Part shown: one piece after another, positions 9,126-47,122 of the stretch | How the letters are laid out: every line of letters starts with the position of its first letter | Position numbering within the stretch: position 1 is the first letter of the stretch | Source: Candidatus Nomurabacteria bacterium | Lineage (GTDB): Bacteria; Patescibacteriota; Minisyncoccia; Phycocordibacterales; UBA2100 | NCBI GenBank assembly: GCA_943356775.1 | Contig: CALRFU010000005.1 | Coordinates: forward strand, 11,671 to 75,670 | Direction: 5' to 3' | Length of the DNA: 64,000 nucleotides | The notes under the pieces: model-generated | What the model saw: only the letters and a program-made list of their open reading frames with translations | What the model was told of the DNA's origin: nothing | Databases searched by the model: none | Translations under genes and position numbers: made by a program

Positions 9126-9129
9126 TCGT

Positions 9130-9717
9130 TCAATCAAGGGGAAGACCGAATTCCTTGCGCAGCGGCACATCATACTCAATCGCATCCGCAATGATGTAGA
9201 GTAAATCCTTGCCGATGCGCAGCTCTGCTTTGAGAAGCGCGACTGCCTCCTCACAATCATACGGATATGCCCATACGCTGTCTTGCAAGCGGACGAAACC
9301 AAAGCCAGATACAATGCCGCGCGCTTGTGCACGAAGGTAACTCCGCTTTTCTGGGATATCAAAGATGACCAGCCGCCATTTATGATCCCACCGGAGTGGT
9401 CGGGGCAATGGCCCGCGAACAGTGAGCGATCGCAAGTGAGTTTTACCCTTCTCTGTTATTCGTAACGAAACACGACCTCGCTCACGGACGAACGCGACAA
9501 GTTTCTTTTTCTGCAAACGATAGGCAGCCTCGCGAATGCGCTGTCTTGGATCACGTTTGATGAGCCAGTCGGGATCGACGTATTTCAGTAGCTGCAATGT
9601 ATTTGGCGCAGCCATTGCGACAAGGCCTACGCCAGCAACGGCGAGCGTCCCAAGAATTGCGCGCTCTATTTGCCCGCGCTTGGTCCGTTTCTTAGATGTC
9701 TGCTCCATTGTACCCAT
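9130..9717 (-). CDS. PaaX-like (COG3327-type) putative transcriptional regulator, paralog 1
   Basis: 195 aa with WRLVIFDIPEKRSYLR...GFGFVRLQDSVWAYPYDCEE, a C-terminal signature shared with 46470..47045. N-terminal basic and hydrophobic segment. Confidence 0.55.
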   Translation of the reverse strand: MGTMEQTSKKRTKRGQIERAILGTLAVAGVGLVAMAAPNTLQLLKYVDPDWLIKRDPRQRIREAAYRLQKKKLVAFVRERGRVSLRITEKGKTHLRSLTVRGPLPRPLRWDHKWRLVIFDIPEKRSYLRAQARGIVSGFGFVRLQDSVWAYPYDCEEAVALLKAELRIGKDLLYIIADAIEYDVPLRKEFGLPLD

Positions 9718-20315: not shown

Positions 20316-22535
20316 TTATTTTGCAACACGCTCAGCTTCCTCGAGCTTCACGGAGAGCAACTTTGATACTCCATCTTGTCCCATCGTGACGCCATACAAT
20401 TCCCCTGCTGCGGCCATGGTCGCTCTGTTGTGGGTGATGACTATGAGCTGCGACTTGTTACCGAGCTCCCGTATCATGTCGGCGTAGCGGCGCGAATTAG
20501 CCTCATCAAGCGCCGCGTCGGTCTCGTCGAGAATAAGAAACGGCGGGGGATTCACTTGGCTCATCGAAAAGATAAGTGCGATTGAGGTAAGTGCCCGTTC
20601 GCCGCCCGAGAGCACATCAAGGCCGCGGATTTTCTTGCGCGGAAGCGCGACATCAATAGAAAGCCCCGCATAAAGCCCCTCTTCCTCCGAGACGAAATCT
20701 TCCTCGTCCTCACTTTCAGCGTCGAGATTCTCACGCGCTGTTTTCCGGCGAGGCTCCTCCACTTCGAGCTTTGCGTGCCCGCCGCCGAAGAGCTTCGCGA
20801 AGAAATTCTGCAACGCGACGTTGATGTGCTTGATGCCCTCGGTGAATCGCGCGTCAATCGTCTTTTCCAATTCTGTGATGATGTCCTGAAGTTTCTGCGC
20901 CGAGCTCTCGAGGTCAACGAGCTCACGCGCGAGAAATTCTTCGCGCTCTTTGGTTTGATTGAATTCTTTGACTACCGCATCCCCTCCTCCTATCCCCGAC
21001 TCTTCTATCTTAATCTTGAGCCGCTCAATCTCGCGCCGACGCTTCTCCTGTGCGTGTCGATCCTCTTCGAGCAGCGCGCCCGCGGGTATATCCGCCTTTT
21101 CCCACCCATGCACGGCAGCACCGATAAGCGCGATTCCTTCCCGCACTTCTTCTTCGAAGCGTTGGCGAAGTCCTGCGATATTCGCGCGTGCCGACCGGAC
21201 ACCGCCGAGCTTGCTTTGCGCCACGCGCACGCTCGATTCCAATTCCATTAAATCGCGCTCGGCAGTAAATCCCGCCTCTCGCGCTTCGGCTATTCTTTGG
21301 CGAAGCGTTTCCAATTCCCCCGCAAGAGCCGCCTCCTGTGTGCGCACGCGCTCGAGCGATTTGGCGAGTGCTTCCACTTGCTGCCGGACTTCTTCGTTGG
21401 TCTCAGGTGCTGCACCTGAAAGACCCTCGACGAAGGCTTTGATGCGCTCGCGTATCTGGCCGAGGCGATTCTTGATGATTGAAATATCGTTTTCGCGCTC
21501 GGCTTCGGCAATAGTCTCGGAAAGCGCGCGGGCAAATTGTCGCACATGCGGTACAGGAACGATTTGTTCGACGGTAACGGTATTTGCTTCCAAGGCACCT
21601 TCGGCGCGACCGAGCTCGCGGGTAATCTGCTCGCTTTCACGACGCGCCTCGGAGAGCTTGCCCTCCCGGTCACCAATCTTCGTTTTCAAATCTGCAGTCG
21701 CGCCTTGCCCCGCCGAAGCCCGTACCGCTCGTGCATGCGATACCGATTCCGCAAGCTTCTTCAACTCAGCATCATGCGTCTTCTCGTCATCGCGAAGGCG
21801 GGCGTCCTCCTGGGTAATCCATGCGTTCTCGCGTGCGAGATACTCGTTCAATCTTACCGCGAGCTCGTCTTTCATTTCGCGCGCCTTCTCTATCTTCTCG
21901 ACTTGGACCCGCAAGAAATTGAGATGCGGCGCAAGCTCCCGGCGGAGTGATTTGGTCTTATCGATATTCATACCCGTCTCTTCGAGCTTGCGTTCGGATT
22001 CGACTTTTTTATGTTGGTAGAGCTTAAGACCAAGCGCATCCTCCACCATCTCCCGGCGCTCACGAGGCGACGCATTCAAAATACGATCTGCTTCACCCTG
22101 TGAGATTATCTGGTAGCCGGAGCCGCCGATATTCGCTCCGGCGAGAAGGCGAATCACATCTTTGAGCCGCACGACTGTGCCGTTCAAAAGGTATTCATTT
22201 TGTCCGTCGCGGTACACAACGCGCTCGACGGTGACATCTTTGAAATCGAGGTCGAGGAGACGTTTGGAATTATCAAAAACAACTTTCACGCCCGCGCGAT
22301 TCATACGTGGAAGTGCCGGCGAGCCGCCCCAGATGAGGTCCTCGCCGCGCTTTCCGCGCATCGATTTCATTGACTGCTCGCCAAGCACAAATCGAAAACC
22401 GTCTGCTACATTACTTTTTCCTGATCCATTCGGGCCCACAATAGAAGAAATGCGCGTCCCAAATTCAAGCGTCGTCTTTTTTCCAAACGACTTAAACCCC
22501 GCAAGCTCGATCGACTTGAGATACATGGCCGTCAT
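20316..22535 (-). CDS. smc: Chromosome segregation protein SMC (compact 739-aa form)
   Basis: Walker A GPNGSGKSN; long coiled coil; C-terminal LSGGERALTSIALIFS...LILDETDAALD signature and Walker B. Confidence 0.85.
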   Translation of the reverse strand: MTAMYLKSIELAGFKSFGKKTTLEFGTRISSIVGPNGSGKSNVADGFRFVLGEQSMKSMRGKRGEDLIWGGSPALPRMNRAGVKVVFDNSKRLLDLDFKDVTVERVVYRDGQNEYLLNGTVVRLKDVIRLLAGANIGGSGYQIISQGEADRILNASPRERREMVEDALGLKLYQHKKVESERKLEETGMNIDKTKSLRRELAPHLNFLRVQVEKIEKAREMKDELAVRLNEYLARENAWITQEDARLRDDEKTHDAELKKLAESVSHARAVRASAGQGATADLKTKIGDREGKLSEARRESEQITRELGRAEGALEANTVTVEQIVPVPHVRQFARALSETIAEAERENDISIIKNRLGQIRERIKAFVEGLSGAAPETNEEVRQQVEALAKSLERVRTQEAALAGELETLRQRIAEAREAGFTAERDLMELESSVRVAQSKLGGVRSARANIAGLRQRFEEEVREGIALIGAAVHGWEKADIPAGALLEEDRHAQEKRRREIERLKIKIEESGIGGGDAVVKEFNQTKEREEFLARELVDLESSAQKLQDIITELEKTIDARFTEGIKHINVALQNFFAKLFGGGHAKLEVEEPRRKTARENLDAESEDEEDFVSEEEGLYAGLSIDVALPRKKIRGLDVLSGGERALTSIALIFSMSQVNPPPFLILDETDAALDEANSRRYADMIRELGNKSQLIVITHNRATMAAAGELYGVTMGQDGVSKLLSVKLEEAERVAK

Positions 22536-22926: not shown

Positions 22927-24612
22927 ATGAAATTAGACCGCGAAGAAGTCCCTCGTGCAGCAGGTAAAGGAGGTACTCGCGGCGAACTCCCAAAGCCGAT
23001 CCCTGAAATGATAAAGCCGCATAGTGAAGCCGCTCAGCGTGTCCTTGATTTGCGAAACGCCATCCATAAGATCGGATCTAAGGAGCCTCCCGTAAGCCCT
23101 CAAATCATCAAGGGCTTGTTCCCGTACTACATGGGAGAAAAGAAAATCGCCGACACAATTGAGGGTGATCGAATAACCCGCGAAATCGCGATCAATCTAA
23201 GCGAGATTCAAAATTTTCATAGTGAATGGCGTCAATCATGGATGCTGGATCCAAACAACAAAGAAGCTCTGGAGAGGATGACGGCGAATCCATCGCAGAG
23301 TCGAGGGATGATTCCACTCGGGGTTTCTTTTTCCCCAGAAAGCTCCCGCCGACCTGACGATCTTCCAGAAATACCCAGGTCCCTACGCCTAATGCTTCAT
23401 GAAGATGAAAATGTATCGCATCACGTACGTAGAACATTCGTACTGGCTCTCAGTGGAATGAGTTTCAAGAATACTCCTGAGGGAAAACTGTGTCAGGTTT
23501 TTGCAAAACTCTTTAAAGAGCGAAATAGGGCGCAAATCGATGCCCACGACATCCATATGCGTGGCCAATTTGATAATGCAGCACTTGCGCTTCTTTCGTA
23601 TAAGATAATTTATCCCGTGATTCGAGAACAAGAAAATCGCGATGGTTCAACCACTGAGAAAGTCGGATTCGGGATGAATTTGCGTCTTCTTGAACGCCAC
23701 GCTGAAGTCTTTCTTGCACGTGAACGGTATGAGCGTCTCGAGAAAAGGATTTCAAAAGAAACAGACTCTTCCGTTCGTGCGCAATTGGAAAGCGAGCTTC
23801 TCGCACTCTCCGAAAAAAAGCAAGATGCCGACACGTTCATTGCTAATCTAAAAAAGGGCTTTGGCATTAAAGACCCTGGAACAATCTTTGAGACTTTTGG
23901 CGATCGCCTCTATGTGCGAAGCTCAGACTTACCTGTGTTCGACTCTCCCCAACCAGGTGATACAGCGAAAGGTAGAGCAATTTCGTCTCGAAGTCTTGAC
24001 GCAGCGCTTGAAATGCTTACGAAACGCGAAATACCCGATGAGAAGAAATTTGTTTCTCAAGATTTAAATACGCGATCAGCCGAATTTTCACACCGATTAC
24101 ATTTTGCCACAATTACCTTGGGTGAACTGACTGAGTCAGTCTCTCAATTTAAGGAAGGTATCGTAGACGAGGACACCCGATCAGTTGCTCGCAACCTACT
24201 AAAACAAATTATCGATATCTCAGACGACGTTCGTCGCATCCACGATGCATCAAACCGAACTCTTTCCGTTGAGGGTAAAAGTCCCGAAAGTATGGGGACA
24301 CGAAAAGAGAAATTTGAACCGCTATTAAAACTCGCCGGGAGCTTAAGTAGATCATACGAGACAATTCTTGAAGACCTTAAATCGCTCCTGTTTGCAAAAT
24401 CACAAAATAATCAAGAAAGCACGGCGGGTACAAACGAAGGCACCACCGAACTTCAAGCCCAATTAAATGATGCAATAACAGAAATTGCACAAAATCGCGA
24501 ACTTATGCTGCTTGTCTGCGAATATTTAACTTCGGGCACGCCACCACGTGAGATAATCGAATTCATTAACGAGTATTTAGCACAATCTTCCGCGAGCGAA
24601 CCGAGATCATAG
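22927..24612 (+). CDS. Large hypothetical protein (561 aa), first gene of an island operon
   Basis: Soluble, helical, no recognisable motif. Its stop overlaps the start of the next gene (TAGTATG). Confidence 0.55.
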   Translation: MKLDREEVPRAAGKGGTRGELPKPIPEMIKPHSEAAQRVLDLRNAIHKIGSKEPPVSPQIIKGLFPYYMGEKKIADTIEGDRITREIAINLSEIQNFHSEWRQSWMLDPNNKEALERMTANPSQSRGMIPLGVSFSPESSRRPDDLPEIPRSLRLMLHEDENVSHHVRRTFVLALSGMSFKNTPEGKLCQVFAKLFKERNRAQIDAHDIHMRGQFDNAALALLSYKIIYPVIREQENRDGSTTEKVGFGMNLRLLERHAEVFLARERYERLEKRISKETDSSVRAQLESELLALSEKKQDADTFIANLKKGFGIKDPGTIFETFGDRLYVRSSDLPVFDSPQPGDTAKGRAISSRSLDAALEMLTKREIPDEKKFVSQDLNTRSAEFSHRLHFATITLGELTESVSQFKEGIVDEDTRSVARNLLKQIIDISDDVRRIHDASNRTLSVEGKSPESMGTRKEKFEPLLKLAGSLSRSYETILEDLKSLLFAKSQNNQESTAGTNEGTTELQAQLNDAITEIAQNRELMLLVCEYLTSGTPPREIIEFINEYLAQSSASEPRS

Positions 24613-24613
24613 T

Positions 24614-25624
24614 ATGGCAAACGGCGATAGAATTGCAGGAAGAAATATTGTACTCGAAGCAATGAAAGCCCGCCTTGCTGAAAAAGCAGCACGCAAACAA
24701 GGCGTTCCTACCCCAGAAGCAGCGGACAAACCTGCTTCACCTCAAGCCCCTGAATCGTCAATTCCCACTACACCGCGAGAGTCTGGTCGCACAGTTGCAA
24801 CCCTTGAAAATGCAATGCGCGACACCGCCGACAAAGCACGTTTCGGTAAAGAGCTTGTCGAGGCTTGCGCAAGCTTGAAAGAGAAGATTGACACCCAAGT
24901 CGTCACACTGATGAATATGATGAACAAGGCGCTCGACATTGGTACTGATGGGCGCGCATACACTCACGATACTGCGAATGATTCTATCGTCGCCAACATT
25001 ACTAACCCTGATCTCATTAGTAGTTTCCGTGCAACTGAAGAAGTCACACGAGAACTAGAAGCCGTCGTCCGTGAAATGCCTGTCGAGATTGAAAAACTCT
25101 TTCATGTACTCGATGAATCCCATGGAAAATTCATATCGATAATTACCGGTGAGAAACACGAGGTGCAGAAACGCAGCTTTGATCCCCTACCTTCAATTGA
25201 TACTCTTCCGGAACGCACTTTGCCTACTCGAACACCAAAATCTATAGAGGCTTCGCTACAAACAGCTCTCGGAGAAAGTGCCAACAGGGCTGTGTTCCTG
25301 CAAGCACTTGTCGAAGCTTCGAAAAGACTCAAGGAGAAGATTGATGTGCGTGTGGTTACCCTTCTATCCATGATGAACAAGGCGCTCACTCAAGGCGTCG
25401 ATGATATTGCGTATACATTCGACCCTGGAAATAATCGCATGATGGCTGTCCCACAAGTAGACCTCGTCATAGGGTTCACTACTACCGAAAATGTCGCTCG
25501 CGAACTTGAGGGGGCTGTAATTGACATGCCGCGCGAGATTCAATTATTGATAGAGGAACTCCTGAAAGCAGACGAAGAATTTAAAGAACTCATTGCGCAA
25601 GGATTAGCAGCAGGATCAAATTGA
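24614..25624 (+). CDS. Hypothetical protein (336 aa) with an internal roughly 100-aa tandem domain duplication
   Basis: Two related segments (ARFGKELVEACASLKEKIDTQVVTLMNMMNKAL... and AVFLQALVEASKRLKEKIDVRVVTLLSMMNKAL...). Translationally coupled to its neighbours. Confidence 0.55.
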   Translation: MANGDRIAGRNIVLEAMKARLAEKAARKQGVPTPEAADKPASPQAPESSIPTTPRESGRTVATLENAMRDTADKARFGKELVEACASLKEKIDTQVVTLMNMMNKALDIGTDGRAYTHDTANDSIVANITNPDLISSFRATEEVTRELEAVVREMPVEIEKLFHVLDESHGKFISIITGEKHEVQKRSFDPLPSIDTLPERTLPTRTPKSIEASLQTALGESANRAVFLQALVEASKRLKEKIDVRVVTLLSMMNKALTQGVDDIAYTFDPGNNRMMAVPQVDLVIGFTTTENVARELEGAVIDMPREIQLLIEELLKADEEFKELIAQGLAAGSN

Positions 25625-25630
25625 TACAAT

Positions 25631-25684
25631 ATATGCCAGAATCATTTCTCAGTAAAAATATGCCAGAATCATTTCTCAGTAAAA
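25631..25684 (+). repeat. Perfect 27-nt x2 tandem duplication, in-frame (MPESFLSKN/MPESFLSKK)
   Basis: atatgccagaatcatttctcagtaaaa occurs twice consecutively at the 5' end of the giant gene. Confidence 0.9.
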
Positions 25685-28600
25685 AGAGGGCGGGACGTGG
25701 AGGAGGGCCGACGCTCGGTTCGTACTCGGGCTCTAAGGTAACCGTCGAGCACCAATTACCGACTCCGACTGGTATAGAGTCCAAAGTCAGCGAAGAAGTA
25801 CGCATGGCGATCGAGAAAATCAAGGCAAACGCCGTCAATGAAATGGTCACGCAAATGAAAAGCGTCGGCCTCGATATTGACGATGCTAGCGTTCGGGCGG
25901 CAGTCAATCAATATGAAAAAGATCCTAGTGTGAGGGATGGTGCAATCAATGCGATTCGAGACATGATGAAGGGCCTTAAAGGAAAGGGTCCGGATGAGAT
26001 TGCAGAAACTCTCGCAAACGATGCACAAGCCGTTTTCACTGCAGCAAAAAATAATACGGAAATTCCACTCAATAACGTTCTTATTCCCCTTCTCATATCA
26101 CAGGGGGAGCTAGAACAAACCGAGCTCGATGAAGCTGCTCGAATGAAACTCAGGGGCGTAAAGTTGAGCACGCGACGACTTAAGACGGGCCCTGTTTCTG
26201 CTGCTAAAGGCGTAGTCGGGCGACTCGCAGTCCCCTCAGCGGTACTGCTACACACAACCCTTGCAGTCGTCGACACAGCTGTCATTGAGAAAGCAGCTTC
26301 AGGCGTACTCTCGGACTGGGCCGTAGAAGGTGCCACTAAAGAGGCTCTCGCATGGGGCTTCTCGGGCGCCGGCAACGTTCTTCTCGTCAAACAAAAACTC
26401 AGTGTACGAGGTGAATGGATTCGCGGAACGGCGGATTTTTTCTGGAGCGACACAAACAAAGGCCGAGTATATGGTGCACTCGCGGCATCATTTCTTGCAC
26501 TTGCGACACCGGCAATTCTCGGCCAGGTGAAGCGCGGTACAGTTGATACAGCTGTTTCGGGGGAAGTTGGCCCGAAAATGGGAGCTCGTTACAAGCCAGA
26601 AATTGACAGCATTCAAGAGACAATCAGACTCGCACAAGGGCTCTTTGGGTCTATACAACCATCAATCGACGATAAAATGCGAACAGCTTTCAAAGATGGA
26701 GGAATCGGATGGGGCCGCAGGACGTGGAGCATTAATCGTGTTTTATACGGCAAGAACGCAGAAAGCGACCGCAACTACGAGGCATTCAGGGCGGATCCAA
26801 ATGCATCTGCGACATTTCGAGGAAAACCCATGGCAGAGTTTGCAAGAGGAGTTGTACCGCCTGCAGAATCGCAGCGCCAGTCCGCAACTGCATCGGCCGA
26901 TCTTACACAGGCACGAAAAGAATTGGAAACGCTGAGAAAAACGCCCTCGACCAAGAACGAGACAGGCCAAGCAAAACAAAAAGCCGCTATTAAAGCTGCT
27001 GAACTTAAAGTACGAAATGCTCAGGGCGCTACCAATGCGCCACGTGGCGCAATTCCGGAGGCCAAGTCCACGCCCGGAGCGGGTGCCGGCCCTGATCCCG
27101 ACGCTGTCCAAAAAGCTATGCTATCGCTTAATCAACGCTACGGCCTCAATCCAACTGATGGAGCAGAACAGTATCTGAAGAAACTTACCGATGAAATTGA
27201 AAAAATAAATCCAGAGCAGGTATTCAAAATACTTGATTCACTTCTCAAAGAGAGTGAAATACTTTCAAAATCAGGCATCATCGGAAATATTTTTGGCGTG
27301 CTTGCACCCGTGCCAACAATCATGGGGACTATCGGTTCGAACGTTTGGCGTGGAGAAGGAGCGAGTTCATTCACGAAAAATGTCCCTTGGGAGGATATGT
27401 TCCATAGCTCATCAGGGGTGCGCGCAATGTTCAAAACTGAAGAAAAATATCTTGCACGTCGCAATGAGATGGTAAAAAGTCTAAAGATGATCATGGTTAG
27501 TACGCAATTCGAGAAATACCTCACTGATGTAGCCAAGGAAACGGGAGTCGACACAAAGATGGTGATCCCATCAACAACGTTCACAATCGCAGATGACGCC
27601 ACTGGTATAGATCGCACGCCCTACAAAGTAATGGTTGATAAGACCGTTTTAGATTATGCCTTACCTCTCATGCCGCCTAACGACAGTCCGGAATGGGGGT
27701 ACATCGACACAAGTTTCAAAAATTCAGGAATCACATGGATCGATGTAAAGACTGATGCTGGGAAATATCAGGCAATGGGTCTGCTCGTCGGATTCGTACT
27801 CTTAATTCTTGCTGGAAGTGTCTGGTATACGATCGGCATGAAAAAACTGAGTAAACGATGGGGCATTGACAATGCTTTGCGCGATGATGAGAAGCGAGGG
27901 TTGTTTGCAGTTGAATCGAAAATTGTGAATGACATGGTCAAGCTCGTGCGCGATCGTGAAAAGACGCTCATGGGAGCAATTGCAAAAAGCGGAAGTAGTT
28001 CCCAATTACCGCAACGTGACGAACTAGCACTTGGCGCGGTCTTGCAACGACGCCTGCGCGAAGAAGTCCTTTCGAAGATGCAACAGCCGCTCGATAAAAC
28101 ACCTGAAGGTATCGCGTTTATCAATCGCGAAAACTCCCTCGGTAGTCGTGCACTGCGTATGGAATATGCTGCAAAACTCAACGAATACATCGAGGGCTAC
28201 AAAAATGACCGCAGCGGGGCCGTTGTCACAATTCTCGATGATATCGATGCGGGTAGATATGAGGAGATCAGGGCGCTTCAGGCATTCGTACAACAGAGTC
28301 AGCCCATCGCAACAACAGAACTCGCCGCGAAGAACATTGCCGCGTGGTGGGAACGCATTGATGTCAAGTTCGTTAATGAAGAAGTTGAAGCTCGTAAAGC
28401 TGACATACAAAACCTCTATGCTGAGCGCGAGGCCGTTGTAAATCTTCGCGCGCCGATGCAAATTCTTCTCACCGACAGCGTGGCACCAGGCAGCATCACG
28501 CCCGCTGATATTTTGTATACATCGCGACTGACGGAACTTGATAGTCTTATCGCCACTCAACACGAGGCGATTAAGCAAATCACGAACGGCGCTGTCGATG

Positions 28601-29430
28601 GTCCTATACAACGCGATACTAAGGTAGTCTTTTCGAATGAACAGATAGAGGAGCTTCGCGACGACCTTCAAAACGAAGAACTCAACAACACCCTCGACGG
28701 TAGTGATATTACATCGGTCGCTAAAGAATATAGCGCACTCGCTCAAAGCCTCGGAAAACGCGTCCGCTCTCTTGAGAACTTCGTCACAGCAGCATTCGGC
28801 GACGAAACTGCGGGTGGTCGAATCTCATTTGAATACGCATATCGTCCCGACGTTTTCGGACCCACTATTGTTATCAATCTACAGCGAGCAGACGGAGAGA
28901 CTCTTACCGTACCGCTGCAACAAACGGTACCGAATCGACTCCTTGCCACAGATGAATCGATAATCCAAGCTATGGCCCAGTGGCTACGGCCTGATAGTAA
29001 AGAGATGAGACTAATGCGATTGTACGCTGTCCATGATTCGTATAAAGCAGCTGCTGATGCCGTCAAAAAAGAAATACTTGGTGACGCCTCGAGCGGTCTC
29101 GTTGATGTAGTTAGTTTCGATGATGAGAAATTTGCGGGCGTGCAAGAGTTACTCGAACGTAGCGATGTCATACGCATCCAAAGGCAATTACTGGAACAGA
29201 TCAAGGCTTCTGGTGAACCACTTAATCAAGTACAACAGCGGGTTTTCGAGGAGCCAGATAAAGTGGCTCTCGGAGGTATGTGGAAAAAAGATATCCGAAC
29301 GGTTTTAAAAGCGGCTACCGATCTCAACCCGGACTCAACAGTGCAATACGACGTCGGTACTGAGGAGGTCGTTATCAAGAATACATTGGGAGAACGCAGG
29401 GTGAACGTGCGTAACGTGCCAAGTACCTAA
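25633..29430 (+). CDS. Giant hypothetical membrane protein (about 1265 aa) with coiled coils and a central TM segment
   Basis: ATG at 25633 (the ORF track starts at TTG 25621). Strong TM helix YQAMGLLVGFVLLILAGSVWYTIGM near residue 720 plus 2-3 weaker hydrophobic segments. No recognisable domain. The first 18 aa carry an in-frame tandem duplication. Confidence 0.55.
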   Translation: MPESFLSKNMPESFLSKKRAGRGGGPTLGSYSGSKVTVEHQLPTPTGIESKVSEEVRMAIEKIKANAVNEMVTQMKSVGLDIDDASVRAAVNQYEKDPSVRDGAINAIRDMMKGLKGKGPDEIAETLANDAQAVFTAAKNNTEIPLNNVLIPLLISQGELEQTELDEAARMKLRGVKLSTRRLKTGPVSAAKGVVGRLAVPSAVLLHTTLAVVDTAVIEKAASGVLSDWAVEGATKEALAWGFSGAGNVLLVKQKLSVRGEWIRGTADFFWSDTNKGRVYGALAASFLALATPAILGQVKRGTVDTAVSGEVGPKMGARYKPEIDSIQETIRLAQGLFGSIQPSIDDKMRTAFKDGGIGWGRRTWSINRVLYGKNAESDRNYEAFRADPNASATFRGKPMAEFARGVVPPAESQRQSATASADLTQARKELETLRKTPSTKNETGQAKQKAAIKAAELKVRNAQGATNAPRGAIPEAKSTPGAGAGPDPDAVQKAMLSLNQRYGLNPTDGAEQYLKKLTDEIEKINPEQVFKILDSLLKESEILSKSGIIGNIFGVLAPVPTIMGTIGSNVWRGEGASSFTKNVPWEDMFHSSSGVRAMFKTEEKYLARRNEMVKSLKMIMVSTQFEKYLTDVAKETGVDTKMVIPSTTFTIADDATGIDRTPYKVMVDKTVLDYALPLMPPNDSPEWGYIDTSFKNSGITWIDVKTDAGKYQAMGLLVGFVLLILAGSVWYTIGMKKLSKRWGIDNALRDDEKRGLFAVESKIVNDMVKLVRDREKTLMGAIAKSGSSSQLPQRDELALGAVLQRRLREEVLSKMQQPLDKTPEGIAFINRENSLGSRALRMEYAAKLNEYIEGYKNDRSGAVVTILDDIDAGRYEEIRALQAFVQQSQPIATTELAAKNIAAWWERIDVKFVNEEVEARKADIQNLYAEREAVVNLRAPMQILLTDSVAPGSITPADILYTSRLTELDSLIATQHEAIKQITNGAVDGPIQRDTKVVFSNEQIEELRDDLQNEELNNTLDGSDITSVAKEYSALAQSLGKRVRSLENFVTAAFGDETAGGRISFEYAYRPDVFGPTIVINLQRADGETLTVPLQQTVPNRLLATDESIIQAMAQWLRPDSKEMRLMRLYAVHDSYKAAADAVKKEILGDASSGLVDVVSFDDEKFAGVQELLERSDVIRIQRQLLEQIKASGEPLNQVQQRVFEEPDKVALGGMWKKDIRTVLKAATDLNPDSTVQYDVGTEEVVIKNTLGERRVNVRNVPST

Positions 29431-29473: not shown

Positions 29474-29655
29474 TTAAAAGATCCTCTTGGCTATGAAATG
29501 CAGGAATGCTCCCAGCATACAGGCTGAGAGCGCGATCGTGATGACAACGGCCAATTTCCGTATATGTGGCACACCTGCGTACTCGAGCGTAAATGTAACC
29601 ACCCAAACTATCAGCACAACCACGAACATGACTGAAAGCGCTTTTCGATTTGTCA
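29474..29655 (-). CDS. Small two-TM membrane protein (60 aa)
   Basis: AAGGAG 8 nt upstream of the ATG. MTNRKALSVMFVVVLIVWVVTFTLEYAGVPHIRKLAVVITIALSACMLGAFLHFIAKRIF. Confidence 0.55.
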
Positions 29656-29742
29656 TGAGACATCTCCTTGCATTTCCATGAAGAGTTAGCCCGCTGCCGA
29701 GTACATTACCATGAACATGCGCTTGGGCAACTTTGGGATGCT

Positions 29743-29835
29743 CTACCACCCCTTCGCAATGAGCGCCTTTTGAGCGGCGTCTTGTTCTGCTTCTTGTTTG
29801 GAGTGACCCTCGCCGAGGGCGATCTTTCGCGAGCG
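29743..29835 (-). pseudogene. Relic copy of the rnc 3' end (last roughly 27 codons plus stop)
   Basis: Minus-strand translation ...KIALGEGHSKQEAEQDAAQKALIAKGW* matches the C-terminus of rnc at 30481..30570 (...KLAIGEGRSKQEAEQDAAQKALIAKGW*) with about 75% nucleotide identity. It is not part of a long ORF. Confidence 0.7.
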
Positions 29836-29895
29836 ATGTAGGCGACGACAAACACCTCGTGATCGGGTTTGAAGCGGGGATCGGGATAGCTCGAG

Positions 29896-30159
29896 CTATT
29901 CGTACAATTCACTATGTGTGCCAATACGGATAAATATACAAGCATCACCGTCGGTGAAATATAGTGCGCGGTAATCTCCCGTGATGTTGATACTTCTGCA
30001 ACCGCCATACTCTCCACTGAGTGAGTGATTCTTCAGCAGCGGATTAAGTGGGTTCGTTTCGAACAACAGCTTACGCTCGACGAACTTGCTACGTATACTC
30101 AAGTCGAGTTTTTTTATATTCTTCAGAAACGATGGGCGCAGGACGATTTTCATGCCCAA
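29896..30159 (-). CDS. relE: Type II toxin, RelE/ParE (YafQ-like) family
   Basis: 87 aa ending LSGEYGGCRSINITGDYRALYF...IFIRIGTHSELYE, the RelE/ParE core. Confidence 0.75.
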   Translation of the reverse strand: MGMKIVLRPSFLKNIKKLDLSIRSKFVERKLLFETNPLNPLLKNHSLSGEYGGCRSINITGDYRALYFTDGDACIFIRIGTHSELYE

Positions 30160-30432
30160 TTAGAGCGACAAGAGATATTCGTCCATCTCTTTCGCGTTTT
30201 TAAAAGCGATCATGTTTTTGCCCGACTTTATATCCCGCATAGCTTCCTTGATCGCCTTCCGTGTTTCGGCATTTGGGATTTCCGGCCGTTCAAACACAAC
30301 GCGCTGATCAGTAACAAAATCCTTCAAGTATCGATTGATTATCGTCCCGAGTGGAAGACCAAGGTCACGTGCCACCTCTTGGGCCTTCTTTTTAAGTTTG
30401 GCGTCCGTTTTGACCGAAAGCATGGTCTTCAT
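30160..30432 (-). CDS. relB: Type II antitoxin, RelB/DinJ family
   Basis: MKTMLSVKTDAKLKKKAQEVARDLGLPLGTIINRYLKDFV..., a DinJ-like RHH N-terminus. Immediately upstream of and abutting the toxin gene. A TTGACG-N-TATATA promoter-like sequence lies at about 30440..30475. Confidence 0.7.
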   Translation of the reverse strand: MKTMLSVKTDAKLKKKAQEVARDLGLPLGTIINRYLKDFVTDQRVVFERPEIPNAETRKAIKEAMRDIKSGKNMIAFKNAKEMDEYLLSL

Positions 30433-30480
30433 ATATCCAAAGTATATACAAAGGATATTACGCGTCAAGCGTGCATAGTA

Positions 30481-31170
30481 TCACCACCCCTTGGCGATGA
30501 GGGCCTTTTGCGCTGCGTCCTGCTCCGCCTCTTGTTTGGACCGGCCTTCGCCTATCGCCAGCTTCTCGGTCCCTATAAACGCGCCGATGAGAAATACTTT
30601 GTCGTGGTCAGGTCCGGTCTGACTCATCACCTGATAGGTGGGCGTGATGCCGTTTTTTTCCTGGGCCACTTCCTGCAACTTGCTTTTGGCGTCCTGCCAG
30701 AGCCTGTTGGCAACGACGTCGTCGGTCTTATGAAAAAGCTGGTCTGCAATGAATTTTTTCGCCGTCTCATACCCTGAATCGAGATACAAAGCACCGATGA
30801 GTGCCTCAAACGCATTCGCAAGGATTATCAATCGCGCACGGCCCACGTCTTTCGATTCCCCCTTCGAGAGCATGAGGTATTCATTTATCCCAAGCTTCGT
30901 CCCCGCATCCGCGATACTCTGCGTATTCACGAGAGCCGCACGAAATGCGGTTAATTCTCCTTCCGGCTTCTCGGGATATTTTGCGTACAAAAATTCGGTG
31001 ACGACGAGTTCCAAGACAGCATCTCCGAGAAATTCGAGGCGCTCGTTGTGCTCACGGCCGGCAGCCCGGTTCTCGTTGAGATACGAACGATGCGTAAAAG
31101 CCGTCTCGAGCAGACGCTTATCGTTGAATGAGTATCCGAGCTTAGTCTCGAAGGCCGCGAGTTCCGCCAT
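30481..31170 (-). CDS. rnc: Ribonuclease III
   Basis: RNase III signature ERLEFLGDAVLELVVTEFLY and a C-terminal dsRBD. Confidence 0.93.
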   Translation of the reverse strand: MAELAAFETKLGYSFNDKRLLETAFTHRSYLNENRAAGREHNERLEFLGDAVLELVVTEFLYAKYPEKPEGELTAFRAALVNTQSIADAGTKLGINEYLMLSKGESKDVGRARLIILANAFEALIGALYLDSGYETAKKFIADQLFHKTDDVVANRLWQDAKSKLQEVAQEKNGITPTYQVMSQTGPDHDKVFLIGAFIGTEKLAIGEGRSKQEAEQDAAQKALIAKGW

Positions 31171-31172
31171 AG

Positions 31173-32126
31173 CTACTTTTTCTTACGCGGACGGGAAGGA
31201 GCCGCAGGCGTGTCGGGCTTTTCTTTTTGCGCGAGCACGTTGATGGCGGGGACAATTATTTTCAAAGTATCGTCGTACAGGTTCAAATCACCGACGGCGG
31301 AGAGTGGAAACCATTGCGCATCGTCGAGACCTCCGCTGCTTCCGAGTCTGATTTCTGAGAAAGGAGATTCGGCGAGGAAGTAGCTCACGCGCTTGCGCTT
31401 CTTGCCGCCTTCGACTTTTGAGTCATTGGCCACATATTCGTTGACGCCGAGTTCTTGGACAATTTTAATATCAAGCCCCATCTCTTCTTTTATTTCGCGA
31501 ATCGCACCAGTCTGCACGTCTTCACCTTCTTCTATCTTGCCTTTTGAGAGCGTCCAGTGACCGAAGATATCGTGGACAAATGCGAGATACGTCTCCCCTT
31601 CTGAACGTGCAAAAACGACAGCACCCGCCAAATGCTCTGTCGGCATTTTTACCGGCTTTTGTCCGACGTCTTTGCGGACGCCGCCCTCATTTTTGCCTGG
31701 CTCGCCAAGCTCGACGTACACAGCACCCAAGACGCCGTTTACGAATCGCCCCGAGGATTCACTGCCGAAAGATTTCGCAAGCTCTATTGCTTCATTGATA
31801 GCGACTTTTGCTGGCACTTGTGTGCGGTCCGAAAAGAGAAGCTCGGTGAGCCCGAGGCGCAGGACGTTGCGGTCGATTGCCGCGATGCGGTCTATCGGCC
31901 ACTCCGGTGCGGCACGCACAATGACTTCGTCTATTTCTTTTTGTTTGGCGACCGCAGTAGAAAGGAGTTCTTTCATGAACGGCATGTCAGAGTCGCGTGC
32001 GCCGAATTCTTTACCGTAATCGAGAAGCCGGGAGACTGCTTCGTCGCTTGTCATCTTGCCCTCCGAAGAGTCGCGCTCAAAGAGCACTTGGAGAACGACT
32101 GAACGAGCAAGGTGTCTATTTGCCAT
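31173..32126 (-). CDS. nusB: NusB-like antitermination domain fused to a C-terminal NUDIX hydrolase domain
   Basis: N-terminus has NusB motifs (ARSVVLQVLFERD...RIAAIDRNVLRLGLTELLF...VAINEAIELAKSFGSESSGRFVNGVLGAV). C-terminus has the Nudix box GKIEEGEDVQTGAIREIKEEMGL. Confidence 0.75.
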   Translation of the reverse strand: MANRHLARSVVLQVLFERDSSEGKMTSDEAVSRLLDYGKEFGARDSDMPFMKELLSTAVAKQKEIDEVIVRAAPEWPIDRIAAIDRNVLRLGLTELLFSDRTQVPAKVAINEAIELAKSFGSESSGRFVNGVLGAVYVELGEPGKNEGGVRKDVGQKPVKMPTEHLAGAVVFARSEGETYLAFVHDIFGHWTLSKGKIEEGEDVQTGAIREIKEEMGLDIKIVQELGVNEYVANDSKVEGGKKRKRVSYFLAESPFSEIRLGSSGGLDDAQWFPLSAVGDLNLYDDTLKIIVPAINVLAQKEKPDTPAAPSRPRKKK

Positions 32127-38360: not shown

Positions 38361-39875
38361 CTAGTTGCGGTTGATGACGATGCGGGGAGCATCACCTTCT
38401 TTTGAGATCTCAACCGTCATCGAGTCCGTTGTCTGCTTTGCCGTCGGTGCGACCGGAAGGTTTTCCATCACATCGACAGGGCTTGGCGTCATCGTCTCGA
38501 CAGGAGCTTCGACAACATCGAGCTTCGACTCTTCCGGGATGCGCACGGTCTCGTACGCGTCGGATTGGTGAGAGCTTTTTGCTGAGTTTGCGAAGGCGAG
38601 AACCTGGGTCTTACCTGCCGCGCTGAAGAGTGTACCCGGCACGTAGTAGACCGCGAGGTAGGCACCGGCGACTGCGAAGGAGATGATCGAGAGCCAGTAG
38701 AGCGCGTTGCCCAAGAGCCCCGCGTCGAATCCGGTGTAAGGAATCTGAGAGAGCGAGATGTACGAACCCTGAACCGTCACGTACGCGTTGCAGGTATTCG
38801 TGCCGCCGTATCCGGAGACCGTGAGTGTATAGGTCTTGGATACGTTCGGACGAACTGCGAGCGAACCGTTGACCGCGACCGCACCGATGCCATCAGAGAG
38901 CCATGCGCTTGTCGCACCGCTGGAAGACCATGAGAGGTACGCAGCTTGACCGTTGGCAATCGAACCTTGGGTCGCCGTGATGACACAGTAGGCGTTGGTG
39001 GTCGGGTAGATTGGGTACGTAGGATACGTTGGGTAAATTGGGTAAATTGGGTAGACCGGCTGTTGTGGGTAGACGTACTGTACTGGGTACGTGACCGGAG
39101 TCTGAGCGACGGGGATGACCGATACCGTGTTCACATTCGTGTTGACGTTGTTGTTCGTGTTCACGATGTTAATCGGTGTCGAGCTTTGCTGTTGCTGCTG
39201 TTGCTGGACCGGGCGCTGAGGCTGAGAAGCCGGGTACGAAGGAGCGTACGAGGTGCTCGGAGCGCGACCGAACGAAGGCATTGAGAATCCCCCGCCGGAG
39301 CTAGAGCCGCCGGTAGAACCGTATCCTGTCGAGCCGTAGCCTGAATAATAACCAGTTGCGTATTTGTTGTAGGAGTATCCGACGCCATATTGTTTGATTA
39401 CGTCAGTACCATACACATCGGTACCGAACGTGGTACCGCCCCAGGAGTCAGTGCCGAGGGTCGTTCCGCCCCATGCGTCGCTGCCGAGTGTGGTACCGCC
39501 CCAGGAGTCAGTGCCGAGGGTCGTTCCGCCCCAGCCGTCGTTGTAGGTGGTACCGCCCCATGCGTCGCTACCGTAAGTAGTGTCACCCCAACCGTCGCTG
39601 TAGGTAGTATCACCCCATCCGTCGTTGTAAGTAGTGTCACCCCAACCGTCGCTGTAGGTGGTATCACCCCATCCGTCGTTGTAAGTAGTGTCACCCCAAC
39701 CGTCGCTGTAGGTGGTGTCCCCCCAGGAGTCGCTACCCCACGTAGTGTCGCCCCAGCCGTCGTCGGAATCGGCGTGTACGGCGCTCGGGGCAATAAACCC
39801 AGAAGCGATAGTGATTGCGCAGAGAAGCGCGATGACCACAAAGAACTTGCTTGATTTGCTGTTTGCGAACGTCAT
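38361..39875 (-). CDS. Secreted/surface repeat protein with a signal peptide, about 16 tandem 9-aa repeats, low-complexity regions, a sortase-like IPYTG motif, and a C-terminal TM with tail
   Basis: N-terminal signal peptide (FFVVIALLCAITIASG). Repeats GWGDTTY(S/N)D x about 16, encoded by 27-nt tandem DNA repeats at about 39420..39760. Poly-Q, NVNTN and YPIYPT repeats. ...SQIPYTGFDAGLLGNALYWLSIISFAVAGAYLAVYYV then a 90-aa tail. Confidence 0.7.
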   Translation of the reverse strand: MTFANSKSSKFFVVIALLCAITIASGFIAPSAVHADSDDGWGDTTWGSDSWGDTTYSDGWGDTTYNDGWGDTTYSDGWGDTTYNDGWGDTTYSDGWGDTTYGSDAWGGTTYNDGWGGTTLGTDSWGGTTLGSDAWGGTTLGTDSWGGTTFGTDVYGTDVIKQYGVGYSYNKYATGYYSGYGSTGYGSTGGSSSGGGFSMPSFGRAPSTSYAPSYPASQPQRPVQQQQQQQSSTPINIVNTNNNVNTNVNTVSVIPVAQTPVTYPVQYVYPQQPVYPIYPIYPTYPTYPIYPTTNAYCVITATQGSIANGQAAYLSWSSSGATSAWLSDGIGAVAVNGSLAVRPNVSKTYTLTVSGYGGTNTCNAYVTVQGSYISLSQIPYTGFDAGLLGNALYWLSIISFAVAGAYLAVYYVPGTLFSAAGKTQVLAFANSAKSSHQSDAYETVRIPEESKLDVVEAPVETMTPSPVDVMENLPVAPTAKQTTDSMTVEISKEGDAPRIVINRN

Positions 39876-46427: not shown

Positions 46428-46465
46428 TATACTATCTTTACGCTATAGCGTAGATATAGTATAGA
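46428..46465. promoter_or_regulatory. Near-perfect 38-bp palindrome with core TACGCTATAGCGTA (downstream copy)
   Basis: CTATACTATCTT-TACGCTATAGCGTA-GATATAGTATAG, 5-8 nt from the stop of the 46470..47045 gene. Confidence 0.6.
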
Positions 46466-46469
46466 TGCC

Positions 46470-47045
46470 TTAAGTGGACTTTTTGAAACCAAATTCTCTC
46501 CTGAGCCTTGCGTCCCCCTCAAGTTCATCAACTATCATGTAGATTACGTCTTTCCCGATTTTGAAGTCAGCCTTTAAAAGAGTTATCAGATCTTCACAGT
46601 CGTATGGGTACACCCACACGCTGTCCTGAAGTCTTACGAACCCGATATGCATAAGTGTGCGGCGGATTTTGTCTCGAACTGCCTTTCGGTATTCAGGCAC
46701 ATCGAAGATGAGGACTCGCCACCTACCATCCCAGCGAGAAGGCTTTTTTATTGAGTATTGCGACTCGAGGATTGCTAAAACCGATGAACCTTTATTGGTC
46801 AATTGGAGTTTTCCATCTTTTTTCGAAAGGAGTCCTTTTTCCAATAGTAGTCGTCGTGCCCGCCCAATGGTGCTTCTACTCTGAAGCGCATTCGGTAGGA
46901 GCCCCATTTTTTGAAGTGCTTGGGGTACGTTTGGAGCCATCACAGTAATACCGACAAGTGCTGATGTTTTTGCAAGAGTTAGAATTGCATATTTAAAATC
47001 CCGCCTTCGCTTCCTTTTTCTTCCAGATTCTTCGATGACACCCAT
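46470..47045 (-). CDS. PaaX-like putative transcriptional regulator, paralog 2
   Basis: 191 aa sharing with 9130..9717 the motifs WRVLIFDVPEYRKAVR...GFVRLQDSVWVYPYDCED...LLKADFKIGKD. Confidence 0.55.
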   Translation of the reverse strand: MGVIEESGRKRKRRRDFKYAILTLAKTSALVGITVMAPNVPQALQKMGLLPNALQSRSTIGRARRLLLEKGLLSKKDGKLQLTNKGSSVLAILESQYSIKKPSRWDGRWRVLIFDVPEYRKAVRDKIRRTLMHIGFVRLQDSVWVYPYDCEDLITLLKADFKIGKDVIYMIVDELEGDARLRREFGFKKST

Positions 47046-47080: not shown

Positions 47081-47122
47081 CCTTTCTTCAGGATTGATTG
47101 CCCCAGGAATTCCACACCTGGA

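Follow-up and report, generated by a model that had tools for sequence, protein, structure and literature searches.

A relBE toxin–antitoxin cassette between two diverged copies of the rnc 3' end in a Candidatus Kaiserbacteria genome, and similar brackets in other genomes

The window, which is the whole stretch of 64,000 nucleotides that was analysed, belongs to an uncultivated Candidatus Kaiserbacteria genome. The interval between its rnc gene, encoding RNase III, and an SMC gene is occupied by a relBE toxin–antitoxin (TA) pair, a displaced second copy of the rnc 3' end (hereafter the relic), a small membrane-protein gene and a three-gene operon. The features, beginning with rnc, are as follows.

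30481 to 31170, minus strand: rnc (RNase III), 229 aa, intact; TIGR02191 254.9 bits (cut-off 166), Pfam Ribonucleas_3_3 and dsrm
30481 to 30618, minus strand: functional rnc tail, repeat copy 1, from GPDH to the stop codon; resident-clade type
30433 to 30468, minus strand: relBE promoter-like site with −35 TTGACG (30468 to 30463), −10 TATACT (30446 to 30441) and an overlapping palindrome
30160 to 30432, minus strand: gene of a relB/dinJ-type antitoxin, 90 aa
29896 to 30153, minus strand: gene of a relE/yafQ-type toxin, 85 aa
29873 to 29895, minus strand: short junction between the relE stop codon and the recognisable relic; CCCGATC present twice
29743 to 29872, minus strand: relic rnc 3' end, repeat copy 2, about 44 codons and the stop codon TAG
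29474 to 29656, minus strand: tm60, small membrane-protein gene, colinear with the relic; 77–82% amino-acid identity to the genes behind the functional rnc of L027 and L119
22927 to 29430, plus strand: three-gene operon (561, 336 and 1269 aa), no Pfam match, low GC, convergent with rnc
20316 to 22535, minus strand: SMC gene, the usual neighbour 3' of rnc; 86% amino-acid identity to L001, PF02463 in the L001 homologue

The nearest species representatives of the rnc protein are L001–L005 (86–90% amino-acid identity; L numbers denote the loci compared), and rnc is followed by SMC at 39 of 80 loci. The junction behind relE may be further decayed rnc sequence. Independent assemblies of several samples contain the relBE–relic arrangement with 100% identity, and it is therefore no assembly chimera. 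Samples containing this organism include ERR5863117 and ERZ27280223.

Judged by its sequence, the cassette is an ordinary type II TA module composed of a RelB/DinJ-type antitoxin and a RelE/YafQ-type toxin. Both genes are co-oriented, with the antitoxin first and a gap of 6 nt between them. RelB matches the Pfam RelB model with 26.1 bits (cut-off 22.4) and TIGR02384 with 35.3 bits, a score below the cut-off of 45.65; its amino-acid identity is 84% to L032 and 92% to L113. A metagenome scan with RelB returned only 9 loci, none of which was at rnc. RelE reaches 42 bits against Pfam YafQ_toxin (PF15738, cut-off 30) and 42.4 bits against TIGR02385 (cut-off 27.9). Its best solved relatives are toxins of the H. 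pylori HP0894 type (1z8m, 4ls4; E 1e-7), followed by E. coli YafQ, and it is predicted to be a ribosome-dependent mRNA nuclease.

The promoter-like sequence noted in the preliminary description of this DNA for the rnc–relB spacer is present as TTGACG-16-TATACT at 30468 to 30441. It is overlapped by the palindrome ATATCC..GTATATAC..GGATAT, a putative relBE operator, and both are kept in the homologous cassettes of L032, L113 and L097. The relB ATG follows the −10 box after 8 nt, and the relBE transcript would be almost leaderless. The order of antitoxin and toxin, a toxin above curated cut-offs and a palindrome over the promoter are shared with the RelBE, YafQ–DinJ and HP0894–HP0895 systems, and the C-terminal RIGTHSELY motif of RelE aligns with HP0894 and YafQ. 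The window differs from these systems in the position of its −10 box very near the ATG and in the weak similarity of its proteins to characterised members (E 1e-7 to 1e-3).

The cassette lies between two copies of the rnc 3' end. A repeat search paired 29745–29826 with 30483–30564 (82 nt, 78% identity, spacing 738 nt), and tblastn of the Rnc tail against the downstream DNA gave 82.8% identity over 29 amino acids (E = 5e-12). Besides the rnc pair, no gene-tail repeat was found in the window by nucleotide or translated self-comparison. The peptides of tail and relic are KLAIGEGRSKQEAEQDAAQKALIAKGW and KIALGEGHSKQEAEQDAAQKALIAKGW, as given previously. The two copies share 70–78% nucleotide identity, and the repeat measures 82–130 nt. 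The similarity of the relic runs in the 5' direction to about 29872 (KPDHE-VFVVA-YIARE), and in this part one A run is a nucleotide short (GAAAAG to GAAAG, 29828 to 29824) and 3 nt are missing at two places, while the last 27 codons are free of lesions. From its extent and its deletions, the relic is therefore a pseudogene fragment of about 44 codons. The preliminary description, in which the rnc end recurred at 29743 to 29835, had recognised a real repeat, but the relic is longer, extending to 29872, and frameshifted. The ORF list and inspection of the sequence yielded no longer ORF in the rnc frame through the relic; the relE stop codon is in frame with its intact part. Contrary to two possibilities raised in that description, the segment neither lacks significant similarity to the rnc end nor lies inside a longer gene. 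A 3-nt deletion (PDHDK to PDHE) is common to the relics of the window and L012 and occurs in 0 of 80 functional rnc genes. Folding of 29657 to 29895 gave z = 0.06, and Rfam returned nothing near threshold for the relic region, so that an RNA function was rejected. The relic is without a coding or RNA function of its own.

The differences between the two copies are distributed unevenly. In a codon-wise alignment of the last 27 codons, 18 of 81 nt differ, and 2, 1 and 15 of these fall on codon positions 1, 2 and 3. Synonymous differences (Sd 14, pS 0.78) far outnumber the non-synonymous ones (Nd 4, pN 0.063), as had been claimed beforehand, and none of 20,000 random-substitution simulations had so few non-synonymous changes. 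With 15 of the 18 differences at third positions, local duplication followed by decay does not explain the relic. Within the functional tail, no tail–relic identity run longer than about 11 nt marks a crossover. The sole crossover hint is Ile225, which is present in both window copies and rare elsewhere.

Amino-acid signature and nucleotide distance, with only about 130 nt informative, assign the two tails to different clades. The functional tail carries the signature FLIGAFIGTEKLA, common to L001–L005 and L008, and is assigned to their clade; its mean p-distance is 0.26 to this resident clade and 0.29 to the other. The relic carries VFVVA(A)YIAREKIALGEG, a signature of the foreign-clade type, and is assigned to the clade of L012, L026, L027, L032, L035 and L042. 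Its p-distance to the nearest tails (L012, L035, L032) is 0.18–0.25, as opposed to 0.29–0.34 to the resident clade. On either side of the insert, the backbone is closest to L001–L008. Membership in the other Kaiserbacteria clade, together with almost exclusively synonymous divergence, therefore points to a foreign, once functional rnc end rather than a local duplicate, and the earlier proposal that the relic is an rnc end from another lineage agrees with both signature and distances. The idea that the relics travel with relBE as one lineage is not supported in this form: the relics of the window and L113 are 0.248 apart, no closer than they are to the functional tails of that clade.

Empty sites, at which SMC directly follows rnc, are found at L001, L002, L004, L006 and L008. 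Relative to them, the window contains about 7.9 kb of extra DNA, consisting of relBE, the relic, the small membrane gene and the low-GC three-gene operon. The GC content of this operon, which makes up the variable island between rnc and SMC, is 0.479 and its GC3 0.40–0.46, against 0.53–0.55 and 0.57–0.64 in the backbone; relBE, like the island, is compositionally atypical. The operon is absent from the five empty sites and lies after rnc in L027, L119 and L122. From the relic through the intergenic region and tm60 to the big operon, the window is colinear with L027 (73% over 5 kb) and L119, where the functional rnc tail and the island take the corresponding places. A single rnc tail is present in L027, in L119 and at each of the empty sites. 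The check on related genomes proposed in the preliminary description thus showed relBE to be absent from the empty sites and to accompany a relic at rnc in L032 and L113.

A donor-like genome with the order rnc–relBE–relic–tm60–big was not found; homologues of the 1269-aa protein led to rnc–tm60–big–SMC without relBE (L119, L122). Co-transfer of cassette and island is unproven because no such genome was found. The foreign tail may have arrived with the island, with the TA cassette, or with both. Of the earlier suggestion that the TA cassette brought in a foreign rnc tail by recombination, the foreign tail stands, but the island could be the carrier, and the route is one that we infer.

The bracket at rnc is a recurrent arrangement with several cargo types, and it also occurs at purH, DUF3175 and SMC genes. 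Relics of the rnc tail lie behind small cargo at 7 of 81 rnc loci. In L032 and L113, relBE is likewise followed by a relic that begins 3–4 nt past the relE stop codon, and the relic starts at the same rnc codon as in the window, the Pro of GPDH. Among these three loci, the left junction (from the rnc stop codon to the GCTTGAC promoter) differs, whereas the right junction is common. Other cargo preceding rnc relics comprises MNT/HepT (L012), Phd/RelE (L035), a Y1 transposase-like gene (L030), PaaX_M (L037) and an SNF2 helicase (L043). The relics behind the three TA cargo types start within 5 codons of each other; over all loci, the start ranges from codon 181 to codon 214. In every same-strand case, the stop codon of the cargo is 0–27 nt from the relic. 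Cassettes of the same relBE family lie between duplicated tails of a DUF3175 gene in L097 and of purH in L105 and L107, and an SMC tail forms the bracket in L024. The repeat length varies from about 48 to 140 nt across L012, L030, L032, L035, L037, L043, L097, L105 and L024. Arrays or double relics are present in L113 (relBE–relic–phd/relE) and L012.

In the genomes whose rnc relics follow other cargo, the relic is nearest to the tail of its own genome (81–99% identity), a result in keeping with de novo target duplication at these sites. The identity between the two copies reaches 99% in L032, and high mutual identity holds approximately in L035 and L030. The L032 contig ends inside the repeat. 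A hairpin element of about 130 nt is present in L012 and L035 and confined to those two loci. A tRNA-Ser gene lies just upstream of the homologous cassette in L094. At the window site there is no tRNA gene, and integration of the tRNA type was rejected there for this reason.

Strain comparison indicates that the relic still recombines. Polymorphism between strains is concentrated in it, and the relics of L087 and L084 contain patches identical to the functional tail, with differing tract ends; by their sequence, these patches are gene conversions from the functional tail. The island allele of L087 is swapped, starting exactly behind the relic stop codon, and sequence similarity resumes at the p336/p561 boundary. 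Strains whose Rnc is identical have island alleles with only 21–29% amino-acid identity. Strains L084 and L086 contain rve transposases on the far side of the relic, outside the repeats. The relic is thus a live recombination substrate, which takes up conversion patches and forms the left boundary for swaps of island alleles.

The reading that we prefer, with a probability of about one half, is that an ordinary relBE module in a recombination hot spot 3' of rnc was acquired horizontally together with a displaced foreign rnc tail. In another Kaiserbacteria clade, a cassette would have inserted at the rnc stop codon with long target duplication, an event that would have left rnc intact and displaced the spare tail behind the cargo. 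Later, relBE and this tail, probably with tm60 and the three-gene island, would have moved into the rnc–SMC interval of the present genome. Homologous or short-homology recombination with a left breakpoint at the extreme 3' end of rnc may have brought about this transfer, and natural transformation is a plausible mode of DNA uptake. The combination of differing left junctions with a common right junction is not predicted by a single simple history of this kind, and the abutment of cargo stop codon and relic looks more precise than expected of random illegitimate joining.

Alternatively, the mobile unit might consist of a replacement rnc tail and relBE and enter the chromosome at one fixed position close to the GPDH codons, through a recombinase acting in trans or a RecA single crossover of a circular form. 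In that case, the gene-fused tail would be borne by the element and the relic would be the displaced native tail, comparable to islands in tRNA genes or icd. The shared start codon of the relic behind relBE in three genomes and the narrow range of starts behind the three TA cargo types speak for such a unit, as do the adjoining cargo stop codons. The arrays and double relics of L113 and L012 resemble serial insertion at a live tail, and in the window the relic passes without a break into the downstream island, as expected of a native tail. It is nevertheless unlikely. The inserts lack an integrase or transposase, relic starts do vary between codons 181 and 214, and one fixed attachment site cannot explain the same cassette family between tails of unrelated genes. 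Moreover, the polarity in the window is reversed, with a resident fused tail and a foreign distal one, unless an earlier island import had replaced the tail.

The order of events might also have been the opposite: the rnc–relBE–relic arrangement would have stood beside SMC first, and tm60 with the three-gene island would have come later from another clade. The left crossover would have occurred in the relic instead of the live tail, so that the TA pair was kept and the relic was overwritten by rnc-tail sequence of the donor. The island is native between rnc and SMC in L027 and L119, and both homology arms therefore exist; the relic and the following intergenic region are colinear with L027. 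The conversion patches show that the relic recombines, and L087-type strains carry a different island allele right after the relic stop codon. We regard this course as improbable, since foreign-type sequence (FVVA.YIARE) with old lesions also makes up the 5' half of the relic as far as the relE junction, and the crossover would need the very first bases of the relic. Among the rnc loci compared, no resident-clade genome with relBE at rnc was found.

The arrangement itself, as well as the 99% identical copies of L032, which demonstrate that de novo duplication occurs among these events, would suit a simple local duplication of the rnc 3' end with neutral decay. For the window, this very improbable explanation is refuted by a synonymous pattern that is impossible under neutral decay (P < 5e-5) and by the distances and amino-acid signature that connect the relic to the other clade. 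An artefact (a contig chimera joined at the repeat) or a functional element (peptide, RNA or terminator) is barely credible: the window is evidently metagenome-assembled and the relE stop codon is in frame with intact relic sequence, but the sequence is identical in independent assemblies of several samples, the copies are too diverged for common assembly k-mers, and the relic is frameshifted, devoid of an ORF, inconspicuous in folding and Rfam searches, and the place where strain substitutions pile up.

A broader and rather doubtful proposition is that gene-tail relics are working parts of a recombinase-free movement of small selfish cassettes among Patescibacteria. Small cargo, for example a TA pair, would enter a conserved gene at its stop codon and duplicate 50–150 bp of the target, and the paired gene tails would then serve as portable homology arms. 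After DNA uptake, RecA-dependent recombination could copy, swap and stack the cassettes into the orthologous gene of diverged lineages, post-segregational killing biasing the recombinants to crossovers that keep the cassette. Integron-like arrays such as relBE–relic–phd/relE in L113 would result, and the relics would mark the boundaries of hypervariable islands.

Little is understood of how chromosomal TA modules that lack mobility genes of their own spread from genome to genome, and our literature search found no work on TA cassettes between duplicated gene ends, nor any on the mobility of TA systems in the Candidate Phyla Radiation. Here, duplication of the upstream gene's 3' end is the scar that accompanies one relBE family at each of three unrelated host genes (rnc, purH and DUF3175), and the rnc end gathers at least five kinds of cargo with such a scar. 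A dead gene fragment can evidently stay recombinationally active, as seen from the conversion patches and island allele swaps. A phylogeny of tail versus relic offers a simple sequence test of donor and recipient among uncultivated lineages. In practical terms, gene-tail relics can mislead gene callers and break assemblies.

Chromosomal integron arrays stabilised by TA cassettes are similar in that a slot beside a fixed point gathers small cassettes, often of the TA kind, split by a repeat (L113, L012, L035). Unlike in integrons, the repeated unit is a coding gene tail and not an attC hairpin, and the cassettes have their own promoters. Inverted-repeat scans revealed no attC-like site at the cassette ends, for which reason an integron was rejected, and neither intI nor attI was seen in the insert.

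Homology-facilitated illegitimate recombination (HFIR) has been described for natural transformation in Acinetobacter, Pseudomonas stutzeri and Streptococcus pneumoniae. Similarly, one conserved anchor, such as a gene 3' end or SMC, and one illegitimate joint could import DNA here without mobility genes. The sequences of L105 and L107 agree at 100% of positions from the last 15 nt of purH on, against an identity of about 80% upstream, which places the breakpoint within the last 15 nt of the functional gene. However, the usual outcome of HFIR is a loss of recipient DNA and not a duplicated anchor. Microhomology was not evident at the cassette junctions compared.

Integrative elements that supply a replacement 3' end include islands in tRNA genes as well as e14 and phage 21 in icd. 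As in these, the repeats extend from inside the gene to its end, the gene is kept whole, and its displaced 3' fragment closes the insert on the distal side; synonymous differences between the copies can likewise occur. In contrast to them, there is no integrase in or next to the window insert, which is only about 0.6 kb long, and the repeat starts vary: relBE has a common junction codon in three genomes, but the cargo types as a whole do not. The polarity in the window is also opposite, the gene-fused copy being native-looking and the distal one foreign-looking as far as about 130 informative nt tell.

The closest precedent for the window is insertion with long target duplication, known from restriction–modification genes, which like relBE are small addiction-type units (Nobusato et al. 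2000, cited in Furuta, Abe and Kobayashi 2010, PMC2853133). In the latter paper (PMC2853133), the process is described without mobility genes, mostly from naturally competent species, and with an unknown mechanism. The direct repeats measure tens to hundreds of bp and vary in length, one copy is present at empty sites, and some of the repeats reported extend over a gene's 3' end (PMC2853133). The window likewise has direct repeats longer than 30 bp, a single tail at empty sites, and only relB and relE between the repeats, with no transposase, integrase or other mobile-element gene; repeat length is long and varies between events. Unlike in long target duplication, the window copies are only 70–78% identical and the relic belongs to another clade; high mutual identity holds in L032. 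The window therefore represents a transferred descendant and not a fresh event, and a later horizontal transfer is needed. Further differences are the cargo, which is a TA pair or other small genes instead of restriction–modification genes, the patescibacterial hosts, and the arrays and double relics. The duplicated target is, moreover, consistently the last 16–50 codons of a conserved gene, which therefore stays intact. The present cases extend the signature of long target duplication from restriction–modification systems to cassettes of the TA kind and, among hosts, to Patescibacteria, which are ultra-small and probably scavenge DNA.

In the window, a small toxin–antitoxin cassette lies between the intact end of rnc and a relic, which is a dead second copy of the same gene end. 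Such an arrangement, cargo between a gene's live tail and a displaced duplicate of that tail, is termed a bracket here. In minus-strand order, the locus comprises:

31173..32126, minus: NusB–NUDIX fusion gene, directly upstream of rnc
30481..31170, minus: rnc (229 aa; TIGR02191, 255 bits)
48 nt: spacer between rnc and the antitoxin gene
30160..30432, minus: relB, RelB/DinJ-type antitoxin (90 aa)
29896..30153, minus: relE, RelE/YafQ-type toxin (85 aa)
29743..29872, minus: relic rnc tail (about 44 codons), 3' of relE and before tm60
29474..29656, minus: tm60, gene for a 60-aa membrane protein
22927..29430, plus: convergent three-gene operon (561, 336 and 1269 aa) without Pfam matches
20316..22535: SMC gene

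The rnc loci of species representatives, among which the best matches share 86–90% amino-acid identity with the window Rnc, assign the window to Candidatus Kaiserbacteria (Patescibacteria). The gene 5' of rnc codes for a 317-aa protein, NusB with a NUDIX hydrolase domain attached, and this fusion is kept across the Kaiserbacteria loci. The relBE module is in itself ordinary. Its family assignment is clear, with Helicobacter pylori HP0894-type toxins and E. coli YafQ as the nearest solved relatives of RelE, and it would act as an autoregulated module of the usual kind, for addiction or defence. In its promoter, the -10 box ends only 8 nt before the relB ATG (30432-30446). This spacing and the missing Shine-Dalgarno sequence (none is evident) suggest a leaderless or near-leaderless relB transcript. 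The same spacing occurs in the cassette of L097, one of the homologous loci, contigs and strains compared with the window (L numbers).

The duplicated rnc end that the preliminary description placed beside relBE is real: 29745-29826 and 30483-30564 match over 82 nt at 78% identity, and the Rnc tail detects the downstream DNA by tblastn at E = 5e-12. The peptides and rough nucleotide identity given for both copies are also correct, and an extent of about 27 codons proved too short, since similarity continues to about 29872 (KPDHE-VFVVA-YIARE). Codon-wise alignment, the check proposed there, shows 18 differing nucleotides over the 27 in-frame codons of relic and functional tail (2/1/15 at codon positions 1/2/3), mostly synonymous (Sd 14, Nd 4; pS 0.78, pN 0.063). 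So few non-synonymous changes arose in 0 of 20,000 trials of a random-substitution simulation. The relic has lost 1 nt from an A run (29828-29824) and, at two places, 3 nt; 80 of 80 functional rnc genes lack these deletions. A 3-nt deletion changing PDHDK to PDHE is common to the window relic (29856-29861) and the first relic of L012 (7628-7633), and may reflect either shared pseudogene ancestry or recurrent deletion. No ORF continues the rnc frame through the relic, the relic is not part of a longer gene, and its RNA gave neither a structure signal (z = 0.06) nor an Rfam family match.

The functional tail has the signature FLIGAFIGTEKLA, in common with the window's closest relatives (L001-L005 and L008, the resident clade). 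The relic has VFVVA(A)YIAREKIALGEG, which marks a different clade (L012, L026, L027, L032, L035 and L042). Nucleotide distances, computed over 125-132 nt, put the relic nearest to L012 (0.184), followed by L035 (0.224) and L032 (0.248), and at a mean of 0.32 from the resident clade. For the functional tail, the means are 0.26 (resident clade) and 0.29 (other clade). Within the final 81 nt, 9 sites separate the relic from the L012 functional tail, 14 from the next-best match and 18 from the window's own tail. Because of the signature, the distances and these counts, the relic is probably (roughly 0.8, for a short sample) the formerly functional rnc end of another lineage, the origin previously claimed for it. 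Three clustered synonymous differences (CGG TCC AAA versus CGC TCA AAG) separate the functional tails of the window (30535-30541) and L087, strains whose rnc genes otherwise agree at 99.7%. The match of these sites to L026-type sequence suggests that the live rnc tail, too, receives small conversion patches.

On both sides (dnaE to rnc; SMC onward), the window backbone is 75–84% identical to L001, L002, L004, L006 and L008, in which SMC directly follows rnc and, on the comparison of related genomes proposed earlier, relBE is absent. SMC follows rnc in 39 of 80 loci. Given this order and the position of its SMC gene, the window has about 7.9 kb extra, made up of relBE, the relic, tm60 and the three-gene operon. 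GC content is 0.44-0.46 in relBE, 0.479 in the operon (GC3 0.40-0.46) and 0.53-0.55 in the backbone (GC3 0.57-0.64). The segment from relic through tm60 to the 1269-aa large gene aligns without a break (73% over 5,056 nt) to the functional rnc tail, intergenic region, tm60 and large gene of L027, and L119 has the order rnc, tm60, large gene and eventually SMC, without relBE or relic. From this colinearity and order, the relic sits where genomes bearing this island have their live rnc tail. The operon (window 22927-29430; L087 5072-10249), which has no Pfam match, is hypervariable between rnc and SMC, and in other strains it is replaced by rve-type insertion sequences.

A downstream rnc-tail relic was found in 7 of 81 rnc loci, and the cargo is small in every case:

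Window: relBE
L032: same relBE as the window
L012: MNT/HepT pair, two relics
L035: Phd/RelE pair
L030: Y1 transposase-like gene
L037: PaaX_M gene
L043: SNF2/SWIM helicase

In L032 (101/102 nt), L035 (92.5%), L030 (about 90%) and L012 (about 80%), the relic is closest to its own genome's tail, as fresh target duplication would predict. The metagenome contig L113 (1-1277) carries relBE (RelB 92% identical to the window's), an rnc relic and a second cassette of L035 type (Phd/YefM plus toxin) with the promoter and operator of the L035 cassette, and forms an array. Brackets are not confined to rnc. In L097 (1280-2260), about 40 duplicated codons of a DUF3175 gene enclose a cassette of the same relBE family, which keeps the promoter and palindrome; in L105/L107 (L105 3387-4130), about 21 duplicated purH codons enclose one, and L106 is likewise purH-bracketed. 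In L024 (9584-10418), a 164-aa ORF of unknown function lies between duplicated SMC tails. In 840 kb of these loci there are only 14 local direct repeats with a length of 40 nt or more, and half of them (7/14) are gene-tail brackets. No bracket was seen around this relBE family in about 8 further contexts. Homologues in L094 (1424-1511), L095 (5965-6365) and L114 (5495-5938) occupy classic island insertion neighbourhoods (immediately after tRNA-Ser(tga), about 430 nt from a tmRNA gene, or close to smpB), with no duplicated flank detected.

Several other repeats were seen in these loci. Two window ORFs with a PaaX_M (Cas2-like) domain, 9130..9717 and 46470..47045 (both minus; regions 9082-9754 and 46428-47091), each lie between near-perfect palindromes of about 45 nt arranged as direct repeats (86% and 81% identical). 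The family recurs with such flanks as the L037 cargo and in L026 and L027, and the L113 contig starts with a similar palindrome. An imperfect-hairpin element of roughly 130 nt lies within or beside the rnc relic at L035 2863-2992 and L012 7751-7889, and in none of the other compared loci; its first 60 nt are about 91% identical between the two, and in both, GAAGCCGAGCAAGA, the final 16 codons of rnc, comes after it. Short-period coding repeats occur in the window at 39433-39762 (27-30 nt units, DxWGxTT-like peptide, in ORF 38361..39875, minus) and at 44083-44355.

In the window, L032 and L113, relBE joins the relic at one and the same rnc codon (Pro of GPDH), and the sequence from rnc stop to cassette promoter differs in each. 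A cassette that carries the tail with it and integrates at a fixed point would account for this constant junction and for cargo stop codons lying 0-27 nt from the relic. However, it is unlikely, as the polarity (which copy is foreign) is reversed, the junctions vary over all cargo, and the host genes are unrelated.

Relics are also sites of exchange. Strains with an identical Rnc protein have relic lesions in common and differ mostly within the relic; L086-type strains show 7 substitutions within 54 nt of it, compared with 3 in the remaining 1,700 nt or so. The relics of L087-type strains and L084 match the window's functional tail exactly in central patches, and the differing tract ends indicate gene conversion. 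Immediately past the relic stop, L087-type strains switch to an entirely different sequence, up to the 561-aa gene, where identity resumes; the membrane, large and 336-aa genes are alleles of 21–29% amino-acid identity to the window's. L084 has the order relic, 17 nt, IS3-type element, SMC, and L086 large-gene remnant, rve-type IS, SMC. The L087 allele swap would suit import of the island with an old relic as left homology arm, but the 5' half of the relic is already foreign-type, which makes this reading improbable. A simple local duplication of the rnc end was rejected, as was an assembly artefact, since independent assemblies from several samples have the identical arrangement and exclude a chimeric contig.

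L105 and L107 show 100% identity that starts 15 nt before the end of purH, spans relBE and the relic, and extends for another 3.7 kb (L105 3387-7279). Just upstream, in the purH tail, identity is about 80% and differences are mostly synonymous; a sharp recombination breakpoint therefore lies at the extreme 3' end of live purH. For the foreign relic of the window, the cassette would first have inserted in the other clade, where L032 keeps a 99% identical pair. Cassette and displaced tail, probably with the neighbouring island, would later have moved into the rnc–SMC interval of the window lineage. The left breakpoint may be placed at the very end of rnc, because the highly conserved SKQEAEQDAAQKAL-coding end is the last homology before heterology; the purH case, which shows such a breakpoint directly, is the analogy. 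The rare Ile225, common to both window copies, hints at the same breakpoint. Of the proposed arrival with a foreign rnc tail by recombination at the rnc terminus, the foreign tail stands on signature and distances, and the route is one we infer.

The bracket matches the descriptive class of "insertion with long target duplication", in which direct repeats of the target, long and variable, enclose a small addiction unit that lacks mobility genes. Reported from restriction-modification systems, chiefly those of naturally competent bacteria, the class is described as having an unknown mechanism (PMC2853133). Literature searches found no paper on toxin–antitoxin cassettes with such a bracket. The window departs from the class in one defining feature, as the recipient did not supply both of its copies, and it is therefore read as a descendant of such an insertion. 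The bracket is thus a variant of a known, little-studied phenomenon, with toxin–antitoxin rather than restriction-modification cargo and in Patescibacteria. It is further marked by its targets, the 3' ends of conserved genes, by the occasional stacking of brackets and, in the window, by the foreign relic.
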